This document shows positions 5,022 through 11,607 of a stretch of 52,134 nucleotides of DNA, in pieces (positions within the stretch are counted from its first letter, which is position 1; each line of letters opens with the position of its first letter). Both the position numbers and the translations under genes were made by a program. Location of the stretch: positions 1-52,134 of the forward strand of contig JANRLW010000106.1 of NCBI GenBank assembly GCA_033762295.1, read 5' to 3'. The notes under the pieces are model-generated. The model worked only from the letters and a program-made list of their open reading frames with translations. It did not search any database and was not told where the DNA came from. The stretch is from Capsulimonadales bacterium. Lineage in GTDB: Bacteria; Armatimonadota; Armatimonadia; Armatimonadales; Armatimonadaceae.

Positions 5022-6563
5022 ATGAATGACCGCCCCATTTCCCGCCGCGCCCTTCTGCATCACGCCGGAGGCATCACCTTTCTTGCCCTGACCGGTTCGG
5101 GCCAGGTGGCGTTCGCCGCCGACGACCCGCGTGGCGCCTCGCCCGGAAAACCGTTGCCACTTTTTCAGGTGCTGCCCTACCTTCAACCGGGGCCGAACGG
5201 CTCCGTGCTGCGTGACGGCGAGGAATCGATTGTCGTCTGCTGGCAGACGAACCGCGTTGCCGCCGACTTCGCTCTGACCTTCGGAGAAAAGGGGAAGCCG
5301 CACGGCGCGCCGCTCCTCCCGGAACGGATCGAACATTTCAAGGTGGATGGGACCGACGGTAAGGATTTCTATCGTTACGCCGTCACCCTGCGCGGAATGG
5401 CTCTCGAAACGGCCTACGAATACCGCATCACCCTGAATGGCGGGCGACTGGCCGAGGGGTTCTTTACCACGCGGAAGAAACCGGGACGGAAGGCGCGTTT
5501 CGTCGTCTTCGGCGACAACTCCTTCGGGGATATCTCCGATCGGCATATCGCCTACCAGTGTTACCTTCAGAAACCCGATTTCGTGGTCAATACCGGGGAT
5601 ACCGTCTACGATAACGGTCTGATCAACGAATTCACCCGCCTTTTCCTGCCGGTGCATAACGCCGATGTCGCGCACCCGCGGGTCGGCGCGCCGATCCTGC
5701 GGTCGGTGTTATTCTATACCGTCCTCGGAAACCACGATACGGTCAAGGACAATGCGAAAAGCGTCTCGTGCGCGGATTTTTCCGCCGAACCGGACGCCGG
5801 AGGCTACTATGTCTGCCTCCACCTGCCGGAAAACGGTCCCGCCGCCCCCGCGTTTCCGATGCCTCTGGAGGGAAACGAGGCCCAGGTCGCTCTGTTCCGA
5901 AAGAACGCCGGGTCACGGTTTCCTCGAACGGCGAACTACTCTTTCGATTATGCCGACGCGCATTTCCTCTGCCTGGATTCCAACACCTATGTCGATCCGA
6001 CCGATCCGGAACTGCAGGCATGGATCGACCGGGACCTGGCCGGAAGTCGGGCTGCCTGGAAGATCGCCGTCTGGCACCATCCGTCGTTCAATATGGGACG
6101 TCAGCATTACGCCAACCAGCATATGCGCGTTCTCTCGCCCCTGCTGGAAAAACACGGGGTAAGCCTGGTATTCTCCGGCCACGAACACGTCTACCAGCGG
6201 ACCCGCCCGCTTCGCTTCGCGCCCCGCGACACCGCCCGGGCGAAGGATATCACTACGGGTAATCGTCTCGTCCCCGGCGACTTTACGGTCGACCGGGGAT
6301 ATGACGGGCTGAAGAATACGGTCGCAAATGGCATAATCTATGTTGTCTCCGGCGCGGGAGGGAAGTATCTGTACGACGCCGATCAGAATGAGGCCCCGCA
6401 GAACTGGACCCATGCCGAGGATGACCATGTCGAATACGGTGCCCGATTCCTCTCGGATCGGCACTCGCTGACCGTGATCGATATGGACTCGCGACGGCTC
6501 ACCCTCCGGCAGATCGATGAGTGGGGAGCGGAAGTCGACCGTTTTGTGTTGACAAAGAGATAG
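5022..6563 (+). CDS. Tat-exported purple acid phosphatase-like metallophosphoesterase
   Basis: SRRALL Tat motif; FN3-like N-domain; GDNS, TGDTVY, LGNHD, WHHP and FSGHEHVYQR calcineurin-like motifs. Confidence 0.9.
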   Translation: MNDRPISRRALLHHAGGITFLALTGSGQVAFAADDPRGASPGKPLPLFQVLPYLQPGPNGSVLRDGEESIVVCWQTNRVAADFALTFGEKGKPHGAPLLPERIEHFKVDGTDGKDFYRYAVTLRGMALETAYEYRITLNGGRLAEGFFTTRKKPGRKARFVVFGDNSFGDISDRHIAYQCYLQKPDFVVNTGDTVYDNGLINEFTRLFLPVHNADVAHPRVGAPILRSVLFYTVLGNHDTVKDNAKSVSCADFSAEPDAGGYYVCLHLPENGPAAPAFPMPLEGNEAQVALFRKNAGSRFPRTANYSFDYADAHFLCLDSNTYVDPTDPELQAWIDRDLAGSRAAWKIAVWHHPSFNMGRQHYANQHMRVLSPLLEKHGVSLVFSGHEHVYQRTRPLRFAPRDTARAKDITTGNRLVPGDFTVDRGYDGLKNTVANGIIYVVSGAGGKYLYDADQNEAPQNWTHAEDDHVEYGARFLSDRHSLTVIDMDSRRLTLRQIDEWGAEVDRFVLTKR

Positions 6564-6667
6564 TTGCCAGAGGAGTACCTGCCATCGGACTCCCTGTGGT
6601 ACACTCCGCTTAATTCGGAAGCGTTCTCATGAGACTGGCAGAACCGGCGGATGCATTGCTGAAAGCC

Positions 6668-7099
6668 ATGCGGACCACGCTCTTTCGTAGCGTGGCTCTT
6701 CTGCTCGTTGCCGCCTGGATCGTGAACGTCGCGCCCCCCCTGCTTCTCCCCGTTGCGACGGCCGGGGTGGCGCCGGCTCCGCAGCACGGACAGGAAACAC
6801 GGACGGCGGATGCGCATGCAAAAGTCTGCAAGTGTCGTCGGTGCGGTTTCCACAACGGGAAGCGTTGCTGCTGCACCGGCGTGGCGTCGGCTGTCGACGC
6901 CCTCGCCTTTCGCCCTCTGTGCGACTCCGACGAGGTCGCGCGGAACGCGCCCGTCGTACCGCCTGCCCGGATTCCCGACCGGGTGGCGCCGGGAACGCCG
7001 GTCCTGACCCCGATACCGACGCCGATCGACACGCGCGAGACCGTTGCCGTCGGACGAACGCCGGTGCCGCCCATACTGCCGCCCCGATTCCTTTCCTGA
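6668..7099 (+). CDS. Cys-rich membrane-anchored putative regulatory leader protein (copy 1); alternative start 6629
   Basis: Hydrophobic N-terminus, VCKCRRC..RCCC..RPLCD, ends PILPPRFLS; paralogous to 8915..9391. Confidence 0.75.
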
Positions 7100-7247
7100 C
7101 CCCTCCTTTGCCACCGGTTCGACCCGGTCCCGGCATGAATCCGCATTTTACCTGCACTTCCGACCAACTTTTCGGTTGCGTTCGCGGATATTGGCTCGAC
7201 GGTCATGGTTGGGCCCTGTTCGCCTGCGCCCAGAGAGGACTCTTTTC

Positions 7248-8060
7248 ATGCGACAACTGTCCCGTATTCCGTTTGACAACGTGTCAACGTCTTCGTCAAC
7301 CTCCGCACGAACGTCCGGTGCGGCACGCACTGCCCGCGCGGGTTTCACGCTGATCGAACTGCTCGTCGTCATCGCGATAATCGCGATTCTGGCGGCCATC
7401 CTGTTTCCGGTCTTCGCCCAGGCACGGGAAAAGGGACGTCAAACGTCCTGCCTTTCCAACGGTCGGCAGATCGGAATCGCGTTCCTGATGTACGCGCAGG
7501 ATTACGATGAATTTCTGCCGCTGACGACCTTCCCGGTCGCCGCCAACACCTGGACCGACCAGACCCAGCCGTATATCAAGAATCGGGGCATCTATCGGTG
7601 TCCGAGCGATCCGAGCGCGAACTGGGACACGCCGCAGACGACCAAAGCCAGCATTCTGGACCCGACCCCGCCGGTCGTCCGCCGCGCCTCCTACTTCCTG
7701 AACGCCTATATGGCGGGAAGCAGCCGGTACGGCAATCTGGCGGCGATTTCCTCTCCGGCCAGCGTCATCTACGTCGCCGAGAGCCTGGAAGGGATCACCC
7801 GAGACCATTTCCACCCGTTTAACTGGAACGGCAATCTGGAAACGCCGACCCCGAATCCGCTTTTCAGCGGTTTCATGCATATGGCGACCTGGGACGATGC
7901 CAGAAACGAGACGAAGGAACTGGCCTTCGCCCGTCACAGCGGCGGCTCGAACTATGTGTTCCTGGACGGTCACAGCAAATGGCAGCGCTGGTCCCAGGTC
8001 TACTGGCAGAAGCCCGAACAGGGGATCTGGCAGGGGGCCTTCGATCCGCGACAGCCTTAG
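7248..8060 (+). CDS. DUF1559 prepilin-type/H-X9-DG protein (copy 2)
   Basis: SD AGAGAGGA before ATG 7248; [23 protein letters not shown]. Confidence 0.92.
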
Positions 8061-8072
8061 GAGAACGAAACG

Positions 8073-8912
8073 ATGACAGTTCGTTTGCGGATCACGCGAA
8101 TGGTGGCCGGGCTTTGCCTGGCCGCCCCTCTCCTGATGCTTCCCCGACTCGTGTTCGGGCATGATACCTGGGTGCAGACCAATATCCATCTGATCCGGGT
8201 CGGCGACCTGGTCCATATCGACCTGATGCTCGGGAATCATGGAAACGCGCATCGGGACTTCAAACTGGCGTCCAAGGTCGACCCGGTCCGTTCGACCCTG
8301 ACGGTCATCGCGCCGGACGGTAAGCGTTACGACCTGAAGGACCGACTGACCGACACGGGATACGCGCCGAAGGAGGGGTACTGGACCACTTCGCTGGCGG
8401 TCGACAGGTCGGGACTGTATACGGTCGCGCATACGTTCGATGCCGTGATGGACTACGCTCCGGAGCGATCGATCAAGAGCGCGAAGGCGTTTTTCGTCGC
8501 CAGTCAAAGCCTGGATAAACCCCGAACGGAGAACCCCGGATTCGACCGGCCTCTCGGTCATCCGCTGGAACTCGTCCCGGTGGCGAATCCGGTGACGCCG
8601 ATGGGGCCGGGGACTCCCATTTCCGTTCGTCTGCTCTATCGGGGCAAGCCCCTGGCGGACGAGCGGATCGCGTTCATTCCCCGAGGCGTGTCGCTGAAGG
8701 CGGAGGGGCCGGATGACCGGTTCGAGAAGATCACCGACGCGAACGGCATCGCCACTTTTGAGCCGAAAGAGGCCAACTACTACCTGATCGTCGCGCACCG
8801 TGAGGAGAAAAACGAGGGGGGATCGCTCGACGGCAAACCCTACCGATTCACCCGATACGGCGCGACCCTGACCGTCTATGTCCCGCAGGTCTGCGCCTGC
8901 TGCGGAGGCTGA
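8073..8912 (+). CDS. DUF4198 domain exported protein (Ni/Co uptake-associated family)
   Basis: Signal peptide then HDTWV; GHPLELVPVANP, LLYRGKPL, TDANGIATF; C-terminal CACCGG. Confidence 0.85.
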   Translation: MTVRLRITRMVAGLCLAAPLLMLPRLVFGHDTWVQTNIHLIRVGDLVHIDLMLGNHGNAHRDFKLASKVDPVRSTLTVIAPDGKRYDLKDRLTDTGYAPKEGYWTTSLAVDRSGLYTVAHTFDAVMDYAPERSIKSAKAFFVASQSLDKPRTENPGFDRPLGHPLELVPVANPVTPMGPGTPISVRLLYRGKPLADERIAFIPRGVSLKAEGPDDRFEKITDANGIATFEPKEANYYLIVAHREEKNEGGSLDGKPYRFTRYGATLTVYVPQVCACCGG

Positions 8913-8914
8913 CC

Positions 8915-9391
8915 TTGTCCGTCCCGGTCGCGAGCTTTCGTCCGATCGCCGCCCTGCTGATCCTGGCATGGTGTCTGCCCTGGATCGCCCCCCGGTTCCT
9001 GCCGGGGGAGGCCCGTTCGTTCGTCTGCTCACTGATCGGAGACAAAACGGCGAATCTTCCTGCCGGGGAAGCGGCCGTGGCGGAAAGCCAAGATCCGGAG
9101 GTCGAGCACCGGCGGGTCTGTCGCTGCCTCAACTGCTCCGGTGGGGCGCGTTGCTGTTGTCTCACTGCGCGCGGGCCGCGCGAAGGGACCGTTCTGCGCG
9201 CCCTCTGCGATATCGGACTACCGGAGACGGTGGTTTCCGTTTCCATGTTCAAGGTATGTTTTCCGTCCCTCACGGCGATCGGGGAGGTTCCGACCGTCGA
9301 CCTTCGGGCGACCGGCCTTCCGAACACCGCGACTCGGACGGTCGCTTCCCGCTTTCCCGAACCGTCGGTACCCCCGCCTCGCCTTTCGTAA
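8915..9391 (+). CDS. Cys-rich membrane-anchored putative regulatory leader protein (copy 2)
   Basis: TTG 2 nt after the DUF4198 stop; hydrophobic N-terminus, VCRCLNC..RCCC..RALCD, ends PSVPPPRLS. Confidence 0.75.
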
Positions 9392-9478
9392 ATCGGACTC
9401 ACTTGCATGCTCCTTCCCGGCCGTCATCGAGGGTCTTCCCCGAGGGCGGTCCGGGATTCACTCCGATTTCGAAAGGTG
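9380..9478 (+). promoter_or_regulatory. SD-sequestering hairpin linking the leader's last codons to the RBS of the next gene
   Basis: CGCCTTTCG(T)AAATCGGA (9380-9397) pairs with TCCGATTTCGAAAGGTG (9462-9478): 17 bp with one G-U and one bulge. Inner stem TCCCGG-CCG/CGG-t-CCGGGA. Confidence 0.7.
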
Positions 9479-9482
9479 TACC

Positions 9483-10280
9483 ATGAAAGACAAACGAAAC
9501 TCGTCAAGGTCGGTGTTCTTTGCTGCGTTCACGTTGATCGAGCTGCTCGTCGTCATCGCCATAATCGCCCTGCTCGCGGCGATTCTTTTCCCGGTCTTCG
9601 CCCAGGCGCGGGAGAAGGCGCGGCAGACCTCCTGTCTCTCCAACCTGAAGCAGATCGGTCTTGCCTATACCATGTATATGCAGGACTACGACGGGAGTCT
9701 GCCGCTCACCATCATGAATGGCGGCTTTGCTTCCTGGCTGAACGCCTGTCAGCCCTACATCAAAAACCGGCGGATGTTCCGCTGTCCGTCGGACAACAGC
9801 ACCCGTCCGTTCCCCTCGACCGAAGCGGACTGGAACGCCGACTACTATCTCCCGGGAACCTTTGACCCGAATCCGGACTACTTCAAATTTCGTCGCACCT
9901 CCTATACGTTCAATGTCTGGTTGATGGGACCGGTGCCCGAATTCCCGATGGTCAAAGGGAACGACAGTATGGTTTCCAGTCCTGCCAATGTCATCTATGT
10001 GGCGGAAGTGAAGGACAATTCGGACCTGGACCATTTCTCGCCGATGTGCTGGGACACCATCGAACCCGATGTCCGGTACCCCTACTGCTTCAAAAGCGCG
10101 TTCGGCTGGGATGCCGCGAAAAAGGAGCCGACCGAACTGGATATCAACCGCCATAACCAGGGAGCGAACTATGCCTACATGGACGGACATGTCAAATGGA
10201 GCAAGTTCTCCCGTGTCTTCTGGCAGGATATTCCGAACGGTATCTACGAGGGCAACTTCGACCCGGCGGCCAATCGTTAA
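9483..10280 (+). CDS. DUF1559 prepilin-type/H-X9-DG protein (copy 3)
   Basis: [23 protein letters not shown]; close paralog of copy 2. Confidence 0.92.
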
Positions 10281-10292
10281 GGAGAAACCTCA

Positions 10293-11156
10293 ATGAATCG
10301 ACGCGAATTTACAAAAATCGTCGGGGCCGGGACGGTCGCCTCGGCGGTCGCCACCCTGGTGGAATCGGACGCCGGGGCGCAGGACAGCGGGGCGAAACCG
10401 ACCGTGCGACCGGCGACGGCGAATCACGATATGTCCGGATATAATATTCCGAACGGACCTCCACAGCAGATCGCCATGTTCGTCTACCCGAACATGACCG
10501 CTCTCGATCTGGTCGCGCCGCACCTGATGTTCACCGGCCTGATGAATGTCGCCGTTCACCTGGTGGCCAAAACCCTGAAGCCGATAAGATCCGATAACGG
10601 ACTCACCATCGTCCCGACCACGACCCTGGCAAAGTGTCCGAAAAAACTGACGGTACTCTTCTGTCCGGGCGGCTCGCAGGGGACGCTGGCCATGATGAAG
10701 GATGTCGAGGTGCTGAATTTTCTGGCCGATCGGGGAAAAACCGCCTCCTATGTCACGAGCGTCTGCACCGGATCGCTGCTTCTCGGAGCGGCGGGCTTGC
10801 TCGAAGGCTATCGAGCGACCTCTCACTGGGCGGTTCGGGACGAGATACTGCCTCTGTACGGAGCGATTCCGGTCAACGAACGCGTCGTCGAGGATCGAAA
10901 TCGGATCACGGGAGCCGGAGTGACCGCCGGAATGGATTTCGGTCTTCGACTGGCGACGTTGCTACGCAACGAAAAGTATGCGCGCGCCCTGCAGCTAGCC
11001 TTCGAATACGACCCGCAACCTGGTTACCGTGCCGGGACACCCGAGACGGCGGGTGAGGATGTGGTCGGCATGATGAACGCCATGTACGCCCCGCTGGTGA
11101 CCGATCTGAAAGCGGTGGCGGCAAAACGACCCCGGCGGGGAACGACCCGCGGATAA
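10293..11156 (+). CDS. Tat-exported DJ-1/PfpI family protein (isonitrile hydratase-like)
   Basis: MNRREF Tat motif; SVCTGS, GVTAGMDF, EYDPQP motifs. Confidence 0.88.
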   Translation: MNRREFTKIVGAGTVASAVATLVESDAGAQDSGAKPTVRPATANHDMSGYNIPNGPPQQIAMFVYPNMTALDLVAPHLMFTGLMNVAVHLVAKTLKPIRSDNGLTIVPTTTLAKCPKKLTVLFCPGGSQGTLAMMKDVEVLNFLADRGKTASYVTSVCTGSLLLGAAGLLEGYRATSHWAVRDEILPLYGAIPVNERVVEDRNRITGAGVTAGMDFGLRLATLLRNEKYARALQLAFEYDPQPGYRAGTPETAGEDVVGMMNAMYAPLVTDLKAVAAKRPRRGTTRG

Positions 11157-11157
11157 G

Positions 11158-11607
11158 GTGAAAACAATGAAACTACGGACGATGAATCAAACGACAAAAA
11201 TCGCCGCGCTTCTGGCCGTGCTTATGGTGACGCCCTTTGCCGTTGCTCAGGAAAAACCCTCGGCCAAATCGGGCAAGGCAATGGCCTGCGAGAACTGCGC
11301 TCCCAAAACCGGGGCGAAGAAGGCCGGACGGGATGCCTGCGCGGTGCCGAAGACCATGACTCTGTCCGGACTGGACTGCCCCGGATGCGCGAACGGAATC
11401 AAGTCGGCGCTGGCCGAAGTGACCGGCGTGGAAGAGGTGACCGTGGATGTGAAGGCGCAGAAAGCCGTCGTCTGGGTCTGTCCGCATAAGAACGTGACGA
11501 CGAAGGCGCTGACCGAAGCGGTGACGGGCGCCGGATTCAAGGTCGTTCGTGTGGAGGACGGCACGCCGAAAGCCCCTCGAAAACCGAAAGCCGGCAAGCG
11601 CGGCTAA
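11158..11607 (+). CDS. Exported heavy-metal-associated (HMA) domain protein
   Basis: Signal peptide, extra CENC, and HMA motif GLDCPGCANGIKSAL...GVEEV. Confidence 0.88.
   Translation: MKTMKLRTMNQTTKIAALLAVLMVTPFAVAQEKPSAKSGKAMACENCAPKTGAKKAGRDACAVPKTMTLSGLDCPGCANGIKSALAEVTGVEEVTVDVKAQKAVVWVCPHKNVTTKALTEAVTGAGFKVVRVEDGTPKAPRKPKAGKRG

Follow-up and report, generated by a model that had tools for sequence, protein, structure and literature searches.

A helix pairing the end of a cysteine-rich gene with the Shine-Dalgarno region of a pilin-like gene: a probable conserved shield of a ribosome binding site in Capsulimonadales bacterium

In Capsulimonadales bacterium, a member of the phylum Armatimonadota (GenBank assembly GCA_033762295.1), the 52,134-nucleotide (nt) stretch analysed here, hereafter the window (contig JANRLW010000106.1, positions 1 to 52,134 of the forward strand), contains a gene for a cysteine-rich protein (8915-9391), which is followed after a spacer of 91 nt by the ATG at 9483 of a gene for a pilin-like protein. 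The end of the upstream open reading frame (ORF) is complementary to the Shine-Dalgarno (SD) region of the downstream gene, and it is very probable that the resulting RNA helix is real, conserved and placed such that the ribosome binding site (RBS) of the pilin-like gene stays hidden as long as no ribosome has arrived at the end of the upstream ORF. With considerably less assurance, we lean towards the view that an invariant Pro-Pro motif at the edge of the helix is a programmed pause, that the module would operate in the manner of the CutF system of Rhodobacter capsulatus and that an exported cysteine domain would set the dwell time of the ribosome.

A helix predicted to shield the pilin-like gene's ribosome binding site

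Seventeen base pairs join the 5' arm of the helix (9380-9397, CGCCTTTCG-T-AAATCGGA) with its 3' arm (9462-9478, TCCGATTTCGAAAGGTG); both arms and the parts of the two modules described below, including the DUF4198 gene, lie on the plus strand. An earlier reading of the sequence alone (the sequence-only reading) had claimed a 17-bp pairing of the last codons, R-L-S-stop, and the following 6 nt with the SD region of the next gene, and both the pairing and the codon assignment (9380-9391) proved to be right. The codons for Pro-Pro-Pro occupy positions 9371-9379 and are followed by those for Arg (9380-9382), Leu (9383-9385) and Ser (9386-9388) and by the stop codon TAA (9389-9391); the 5' arm is made up of the three final sense codons, the stop codon and 6 nt of the spacer. 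Sixteen of the pairs are Watson-Crick pairs, one is a G-U pair (9381/9477), and U9389, the first base of the stop codon, is bulged; a repeat finder splits the helix into two adjacent arms, I8 and I9. The 3' arm includes the purine-rich, SD-like sequence GAAAGGTG at 9471-9478, and the loop between both arms contains a G+C-rich hairpin (9415-9456), which corresponds to the second GC stem that had been noticed in the sequence-only reading.

Folding of positions 9350-9500 gave a free energy of -56.7 kcal/mol (z -3.18), which was reached by 1 of 200 shuffled sequences, and both the helix and the inner hairpin are present in the minimum free energy (MFE) structure and in the centroid. The mean pair probability (P) of the 17 helix pairs was 0.96-0.99 in five sequence contexts of 121 to 601 nt. 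For duplex calculations, the tail was defined as the 27 nt ending with the stop codon plus the next 9 nt, and the target as the 30 nt before the next start codon. The tail of the ORF ending at 9391 forms a duplex of -27.8 kcal/mol with the SD window, a value matched by 1 of 5000 shuffled tails, and it ranks first among 33 windows of its ORF. When the 5' arm is covered up to 9388 in the computed fold, the SD region retains weak local pairs only. The structure is thus that of RNA-unfolding coupling, in which the RBS of a downstream gene is paired with sequence of the upstream ORF, and a functional dependence of the downstream gene on this pairing is predicted.

A scan of positions 6000-11000 with the Rfam covariance models gave no match at E<=1 on either strand, and no promoter-like or terminator-like site was found on the plus strand of the spacer. 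The interpretation of the hairpin as a terminator was dropped because the spacer has no T-tract site on this strand. A repeat or mobile element was also rejected, since the 121-nt stretch is unique in the 5.16-Mb assembly and has chance matches of 14-24 nt only elsewhere.

Conservation of the pairing across homologous loci

A comparison across homologous loci, which had been suggested along with the sequence-only reading, came out in favour of the helix: the pairing is conserved, with compensatory changes, among 46 loci, which are related to each other and not independent. These are the loci, out of 58 unique ORF hits, in which a pilin-like gene could be recognised downstream and the spacer measures 25 nt or more. 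Twelve loci were excluded, eleven of them due to a contig end or because the motif search found no pilin gene, and one due to an overlapping arrangement; one of the excluded loci (L073) does have a pilin gene, which was missed by the motif search. Two further excluded loci, L020 and L040, have a non-pilin downstream gene, and by eye, their stop codon region is complementary to a purine-rich stretch before the next start codon (CCUGAU/AUCAGG in L020 and AACCUUUCCU/AGGAAAGGUU in L040).

The mean energy of the duplex between tail and SD window is -19.26 kcal/mol for cognate pairs compared to -12.63 kcal/mol for non-cognate pairs, and none of 20000 permutations reached the cognate mean; the first 14 loci alone gave -17.4 and -11.3 kcal/mol, respectively, again with 0 of 20000 permutations. 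Compared with the other windows tiled along its own ORF (33 in all), the tail came first in 19 of the 46 loci and within the top three in 28. Ungapped pairing that runs across the stop codon for 7 bp or more is seen in 23 of the 46 cognate pairs versus 215 of 2070 non-cognate pairs, and for 10 bp or more in 12 of 46 versus 64 of 2070. The stop codon itself covaries with its partner triplet (UGA:UCA in 19 cases, UAA:UUA in five, UAA:UUG in two and UGA:UUA in two), all three stop bases are paired in 31 of 46 duplexes, and positions flanking the stop codon show several Watson-Crick types, for instance C-G in eight, G-C in eight and U-A in seven cases at position -4. The sequences of the 5' arms are all different among the 23 helices of at least 7 bp.

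Similar results were obtained with partition-function folds, which spanned 90 nt before the stop codon to 30 nt past the next start codon. Tail positions -10 to 0 pair with positions -21 to -8 of the next start codon with a median probability of 0.75-0.99, and the mean probability over positions -16 to -5 is at least 0.5 in 30 and at least 0.3 in 37 of the 46 loci. The median length of the spacer is 95.5 nt. A GGAG, GAGG, AGGA, AAGG or GGGG word is found at -20 to -4 in 41 of the 46 downstream genes, the start codons of which were picked by a rule favouring an SD sequence. Covariation was judged by stop-anchored and energy-based tests with permutation and internal controls; the formal covariation tools did not cope with these loci because the loops are variable. 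RNAalifold detected no pairs in a MAFFT alignment of seven loci, in which the 3' arms are out of register; a MAFFT alignment of 20 loci aligned the 5' arms and left the 3' arms unaligned. Five loci of a single clade were used to build a covariance model; its 14 matches, several of them antisense, were restricted to that clade and the loci L074 and L016.

One genus (L023, L043, L047, L048 and L050) retains the C-terminal Pro-Pro, as PPQA or PPRG followed by the stop codon; in those members for which a downstream gene could be observed, tail and SD do not pair and the spacers measure 190-342 nt. A different mode, for example Rho-dependent control, may operate in this genus, or the switch may have been lost.

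The cysteine-rich protein and its family

The sequence-only reading had treated the upstream ORF as a leader ('leader 2'). The term short leader peptide does not describe it: the ORF at 8915-9391 encodes a conserved protein of 158 amino acids (aa), followed by TAA, with a membrane or signal helix and a conserved cysteine cluster. It starts with the TTG at 8915, which is the sole start codon upstream of the hydrophobic helix in that frame and is preceded at a distance of 6 nt by a GGAGG SD sequence (8904-8908) located inside the last codons of a DUF4198 gene. The hydrophobic helix comprises residues 9-28 (codons at 8939-8998) and is predicted to be a signal anchor or signal peptide. The cysteine cluster, C69-x-C71-x2-C74-x5-C80-C81-C82 and C98, is encoded at 9119-9208. 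In the AlphaFold2 (AF2) model, the helix has a predicted local distance difference test (pLDDT) score of about 90 and the cysteine domain (residues 61-110) of 82-88, and about 48 residues after this domain (111-158) are without predicted secondary structure.

Neither the protein nor its paralogue in the window (6629-7099, see below) matched a family of Pfam (E<=0.01) or NCBIfam, Foldseek gave no match of the AF2 model in the PDB at E<=10, a single-sequence search for homologues of the 158-aa protein returned the protein itself only, and a search for related loci found nothing. A protein atlas placed the protein in unnamed clusters, the nearest named ones being DUF6769, DUF6660 and CzcI at a score of 0.90, which often arises by chance; a DUF6660 match was seen in one of 114 family members with an E-value of 0.013, and both results are leads only.

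The family was found by searching 41 related genomes with the single protein, which matched in 16 genomes including that of the window; two of the loci, L024 and L025, were judged spurious by inspection. An unfiltered alignment of 15 sequences (A1) served as search profile. With it, family members were detected in 31 of the 71 genomes that make up the order (the class comprises the same 71 genomes), in 47 of the 401 genomes sampled across the phylum Armatimonadota and, among 1.84 billion proteins, in 124 cluster representatives at E<=0.001. Of these representatives, 114 went into a second alignment (A3), which omits three fragments and seven sequences whose C-terminal regions are partial or aberrant; five of the latter have no Pro-Pro motif. 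C71, C81, C82 and C98 do not vary in A3, and conservation reaches at least 90% for C69, C74 and C80; of all 124 representatives, 112 contain C.C..C and 119 contain CCC. This is a putative metal-binding motif of the type by which CutF-like proteins are defined.

The best 19-residue segment has a Kyte-Doolittle (KD) hydropathy of at least 1.6 in 82 of 101 sequences. On average, 2.15 Lys and Arg residues are found on the N-terminal side of the hydrophobic helix compared to 0.99 on the other side, with an excess on the N-terminal side in 62 and on the C-terminal side in 14 of the 101 sequences, and the protein beyond the helix is therefore probably exported (N-in). The family has a median length of 147.5 aa, 65 of the 124 members are shorter than 150 aa, and the two window proteins have 158 and 156 aa. 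The distance between the CCC motif and the C-terminus is nearly constant (median 77 residues, interquartile range 76-80), and the stretch of about 48 residues that follows the cysteine domain is poorly conserved apart from the Pro-Pro motif.

The Pro-Pro motif at the edge of the helix

The C-terminus of the family reads P-x3-P-P-[R/C/Q/K]-hydrophobic-[L/S]-stop. According to unfiltered counts, 119 of 124 representatives and 54 of 58 ORFs of the genome set have Pro-Pro among their last 16 residues. In the window protein, P154 and P155 (9374-9379) belong to the Pro-Pro-Pro codons at 9371-9379, the proposed pause site. Both residues are invariant in the unfiltered alignment A1 and also in A3, where the invariance is partly by construction, as sequences without Pro-Pro are among those dropped. 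PPP is found in 55 and PP[RCQK] in 109 of the 124 members, and the motif R[AG]PP, a RAPP-type motif, was found in the last 16 residues of none of them. The motif lies close to the stop codon: two to four residues follow it in 44 of 54 ORFs of the genome set (exactly three in 30 of 54), three or four in 88 of 119 representatives and three in the window protein, which ends with V-P-P-P-R-L-S.

The motif lies immediately 5' of the helix. In the full folds of the 46 loci, the Pro-Pro codons pair with the SD window with a probability of 0.09-0.23, which rises to about 0.7 from the next nucleotide on, and no other stretch of the tail has a lower probability of pairing with any partner (0.27-0.42 for these codons). 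All four third-position bases are used in the Pro-Pro codons, and the constraint therefore acts on the amino acids. The residues after the prolines, mostly Arg, then Leu or Phe, then Leu or Ser, may be conserved largely through an RNA constraint, because the pyrimidine-rich 5' arm encodes them. In locus L055, seven residues follow PPP, and the arm (-27.3 kcal/mol) directly follows the prolines and ends 8 nt before the stop codon; here, the arm tracks the prolines and not the stop codon.

Gene neighbourhood and the paralogous module

The gene downstream of the helix (9483-10280) encodes an H-X9-DG prepilin-type protein with DUF1559 and N_methyl domains (PF07596, PF07963; TIGR04294, TIGR02532), the RBS of which is the one predicted to be shielded. 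The combination of a cysteine-rich and an H-X9-DG pilin-like gene occurs twice in tandem at 6629-10280, with the DUF4198 gene (8073-8912; PF10670, E 2.4e-30), whose stop codon lies 2 nt before TTG 8915, in between. The first module consists of a paralogous cysteine-rich ORF ('leader 1', 6629-7099), which encodes a protein of 156 aa ending with LPPRFLS and has its Pro-Pro codons at 7079-7084, and of the first H-X9-DG/DUF1559 pilin-like gene (7248-8060), which was assigned by Pfam. Leader 1 matches the ORF starting at 8915 by BLASTP with an E-value of 1e-8 and also matches the hidden Markov model of the family, and the two paralogues share about 30% identity only. Its weak 5' arm (7089-7098, UCCUUUC.UG) pairs with CAGAGAGGA in the SD region of the first pilin-like gene (7231-7239) in the MFE structure, with a probability of 0.69. 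The five genes between 6629 and 10280 all lie on the plus strand and are separated by gaps of 2-148 nt, which suggests that they form one operon.

Further downstream, a DJ-1/PfpI family protein (10293-11156) starts with MNRREFTKIVGAG, which resembles a twin-arginine signal, and a protein of 149 aa (11158-11607) has a hydrophobic N-terminal segment and a C-terminal HMA/CopZ/MerP-like domain, whose best NCBIfam match (E 4.5e-10) is below the cut-offs. A Pfam scan of 27 third-gene fragments of homologous loci identified SCO1/SenC in two, AhpC/redoxin in three and HMA, YtkA/FixH and PepSY_TM in one case each, with no match in 12. Together with the DUF4198 and HMA/CopZ/MerP-like genes of the window, these lend the neighbourhood a metal and thiol flavour, which is not decisive.

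Proposed mechanism and alternative explanations

CutF of R. capsulatus possesses a Sec signal, a copper site (CxxxC) in its exported part and a PPP motif at the C-terminus, and a stem-loop shields the SD sequence of cutO (bioRxiv 10.1101/2025.02.05.636593; PMC9973294). Binding of copper to the exported nascent chain prolongs the stall despite the presence of elongation factor P (EF-P), and the stem is melted by the ribosome (bioRxiv 10.1101/2025.02.05.636593). By analogy, the 5' arm at 9380-9397 would pair with the 3' arm at 9462-9478 in a polycistronic mRNA, and initiation at the pilin-like gene would require a ribosome that sits on the 5' arm or unwinds it. A ribosome slowed down at Pro-Pro(-Arg) would keep the 5' arm in its mRNA channel, thereby leaving the SD sequence open for longer than a ribosome that simply reaches the stop codon. 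Roughly 12-15 nt on the 3' side of the P-site codon are covered by the mRNA channel of the ribosome. If Pro155 occupies the P site, positions 9380 to about 9391 would lie in the channel, and it is these positions of the arm that pair with GAAAGGUG; a stall at PPPR, as put forward in the sequence-only reading, would fit the position of the arm. Because the N-terminal helix is predicted to be N-in and the cysteine cluster to be exported, the length of the pause would probably be set by the fate of the exported domain, that is by metal binding, disulfide formation or Sec pulling, and by EF-P, as with CutF. Co-transcription, Pro-Pro pausing, ligand dependence and the sign of the regulation are parts of this model that we infer. 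It is more speculative still, and in our view rather doubtful, that the module represents an independently evolved, non-homologous counterpart of the transmembrane metal sensors CutF and CruR, in which the heptacysteine domain, exported during its translation, would set the dwell on Pro-Pro at the edge of the helix and the target would be the H-X9-DG pilin-like gene.

Several observations weigh against such a switch. An ordinary terminating ribosome would open the helix as well, and the RNA evidence alone requires no pause. The genome encodes EF-P, which normally relieves Pro-Pro pauses, and EF-P could erase a pause at this motif; to our knowledge, Pro-Pro-Arg is not one of the strongest stalling triplets. 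The conserved cysteine cluster and the confidently modelled domain could mean that the upstream product is a stable protein with its own function instead of a disposable sensor, and no part in metal handling is known for the pilin-like target. As homology to DUF2946, the family to which the known sensors belong, is not detectable, the analogy with CutF is one of architecture. Pairing is also uneven among loci: in about a dozen of the 46, the tail has no advantage and lies in the lower half of the ORF windows, 16 of the 46 have a mean probability below 0.5, and six (L014, L023, L043, L050, L061 and L071) show near-zero pairing (P<=0.06), three of which (L023, L043 and L050, with spacers of 190-342 nt) are unpaired yet retain Pro-Pro. 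In the paralogous module of the window itself, the pairing is weak, with 9 bp, a duplex rank of 30 among 32 ORF windows and a z-score of -1.04 for the region.

The principal alternative is constitutive RNA-unfolding coupling, in which any ribosome finishing the cysteine-rich ORF would open the helix, the two proteins would be made in a fixed ratio, and Pro-Pro would serve the mature protein, for instance as a C-terminal contact. We regard this as a possible but not a likely explanation. It would fit terminating ribosomes that the helix includes the stop codon in most loci (fully paired in 31 of 46) and that this codon covaries with its partner; moreover, the upstream protein has a conserved and confidently modelled domain, and a conserved gene order is expected for partners. 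The model of RNA unfolding has also been established for other gene pairs, such as MS2 coat-lysis and rpmI-rplT, where an RBS silenced by pairing with the upstream ORF is activated by translating ribosomes (PMC12548453). However, constitutive coupling does not account for a Pro-Pro motif that is as invariant as the cysteines and is located two to four codons before the stop codon at the 5' edge of the helix, nor for the 48 residues after the cysteine domain, for which no structure is predicted and whose conservation is otherwise poor. In CutF, this layout works as a stalling switch, and in L055 the arm follows the prolines, although the stop codon lies seven codons further downstream.

Two further explanations were considered, both of them improbable. 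A ligand-independent export monitor of the SecM, VemP or MifM kind, whose pause would be relieved by Sec or YidC pulling and which would induce the downstream gene when export is impaired, could make use of the N-terminal signal or anchor with its N-in charge bias, the C-terminal proline motif and the SD-shielding stem, and polyproline monitoring substrates encoded upstream of secA exist in Planctomycetota (PMC10987492); yet the regulated gene is a pilin-like H-X9-DG gene and not a component of the export machinery, and the cysteine cluster and the metal- and thiol-related neighbours would be left without a role. We give hardly any credence to the notion that the helix does not control initiation at all, but is a hairpin that stabilises or processes the mRNA, a Rho device like that of CruR or the chance complementarity of pyrimidine-rich codons and purine-rich SD sequences. 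Codons for Pro, Leu, Ser and Phe are indeed rich in pyrimidines and produce background pairing (non-cognate mean -12.6 kcal/mol), CruR acts through Rho, and three loci with long spacers lack the pairing. Against this, in each of 20000 permutations the cognate pairs outperformed the non-cognate ones, the arms differ among lineages yet remain complementary, the 3' arm is found at -21 to -8 of the start codon in locus after locus, and the spacer contains no T-tract terminator and is highly structured rather than an open Rho-loading site. We prefer a helix that hides the RBS and is opened by the ribosome at the end of the cysteine-rich ORF, where a programmed Pro-Pro pause would prolong the opening.

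Significance

Exported copper-sensing nascent chains that gate the next gene by proline stalling have been described only recently, for DUF2946 proteins of Proteobacteria (bioRxiv 10.1101/2025.02.05.636593; PMC9973294). The module described here would add a second family without detectable homology to DUF2946, which appears to follow the same logic, in a poorly studied phylum, and its comparative support is unusually clear, with 46 loci and a stop codon that covaries with its partner next to the SD sequence. The class of mechanism is already in print, and the cysteine-rich family with its H-X9-DG target would be a variant of it.

If the pause is real, the design of signal, metal site, linker of fixed length, Pro-Pro and RBS-shielding helix has evolved or diversified beyond one family, the fixed distance of about 77 residues between the cysteine cluster and the C-terminus offers a natural system for effects of force and folding on stalling, and H-X9-DG pilin-like proteins would be linked to metal or thiol homeostasis. 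Should the module indeed be a non-homologous sensor, at least some members of the very large and functionally unassigned H-X9-DG group would be metal- or thiol-regulated envelope proteins, and a first experimental handle on them would be available. If only constitutive coupling takes place, the module is still a clean and conserved example of RNA-unfolding coupling over a long spacer.

Comparison with known systems

RNA-unfolding coupling as found for MS2 coat-lysis and rpmI-rplT requires neither a pause motif nor a sensing domain, and the spacers of the loci studied here are long for coupling. The mgtP and mgtL leaders of Salmonella share consecutive proline codons in an upstream ORF, which link EF-P or proline supply to alternative RNA structures; in contrast to the window protein, they are short cytoplasmic leader peptides that act on transcription attenuation.

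The geometry of SecM and MifM had been invoked in the sequence-only reading. The layout agrees, as the 5' arm begins directly after the prolines, with the next codon, and the SD sequence lies in the 3' arm. The target, however, is a component of neither the Sec nor the YidC machinery, and CutF and CruR are closer. SecM, VemP and MifM possess an N-terminal signal or transmembrane segment, as predicted for the window protein, a C-terminal arrest motif and an SD-sequestering stem, which is opened by the stalled ribosome in these systems; however, they act on SecA, SecDF2 and YidC2, arrest at motifs other than a simple Pro-Pro and have middle regions that are not conserved domains. A classification as monitoring substrate of Sec or YidC was rejected because the downstream gene is of the H-X9-DG prepilin type in the window and pilin-like in 46 of 58 loci. 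The uA_LPPP monitor candidates of Planctomycetota stall with the third codon of LPPP in the P site, and EF-P is suspected to be a modulator (PMC10987492). They resemble the cysteine-rich family in the N-terminal signal sequence, which is predicted for the latter, and in a proline motif within the last 15 residues (xPPP in uA_LPPP), but are encoded upstream of secA, have diverse N-terminal parts and lack a conserved cysteine domain.

More similarities exist with the CutF-like proteins, 5,334 of which have been found, mostly in Pseudomonadota and Bacteroidota, with pilin-type signals as one signal-peptide category in a figure on CutF-like and downstream proteins (PMC9973294); the term 'Armatimonad' is absent from the text of this report and from three small supplement files. 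The shared features are an N-terminal signal-type helix, predicted for the family described here, a cysteine motif, Pro-Pro(-Pro) within the last 15 residues, a downstream gene that lies on the same strand, a spacer of mostly less than 100 nt, a stem that shields the SD sequence and metal-related neighbours; both the proline motif near the C-terminus and the downstream spacer with its shielding helix, by which CutF-like proteins are recognised, are thus present. Differences concern the cysteine motif, which is the heptacysteine motif CxCxxC..CCC..C in the window protein and CxxxC or CxxC plus His in the CutF class, the length of 158 aa, which exceeds the 150-aa filter of PMC9973294, and the target, which is an H-X9-DG pilin-like gene. 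In CutF, the stem is melted by a ribosome stalled at the prolines, which is what the mechanism proposed for the window would entail.

Membership in DUF2946 was rejected, as none of 114 family members matched the PF11162 (DUF2946) profile at E<=1 and an hhalign comparison of A3 with 14 DUF2946 proteins from this phylum gave a probability of 4%; PF11162 hits in the genome of the window and its relatives lie at other loci. The DUF2946 proteins of the phylum carry R-[AG]-P-P-x2-7-stop in 14 of 14 cases. When 13 local DUF2946 loci were folded in the same way, pairing between tail and SD reached P>=0.48 in six and was less regular than in the cysteine-rich family. Among these loci (L083, L088-L104; L087, L092), the next gene is a pilin-like H-X9-DG gene in two of 13 and encodes a MotA/ExbB-like N-terminus, a label read from the N-terminal sequence, in another two of 13. 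The genome of the window has a separate DUF2946-like ORF (L083, G000:C18:4367-4669), which scores 20.7 bits, below the cut-off, and ends with ARAPPLA; the start rule picked no downstream start codon for it.

CruR of Bordetella pertussis, a DUF2946 protein, acts by Rho-dependent termination across a spacer of 162 nt, independently of its signal sequence, and its arrest is relieved by copper (bioRxiv 10.1101/2025.02.05.636593). An upstream ORF with a metal-binding-type motif and a C-terminal proline motif is common to CruR, which controls its downstream gene post-transcriptionally, and to the module described here; in contrast to the Rho route of CruR, the conserved feature of the latter is direct pairing with the SD sequence. 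Taken together, the closest published analogue, judged by architecture, is the CutF/CruR class of exported, metal-binding arrest peptides with a proline motif.

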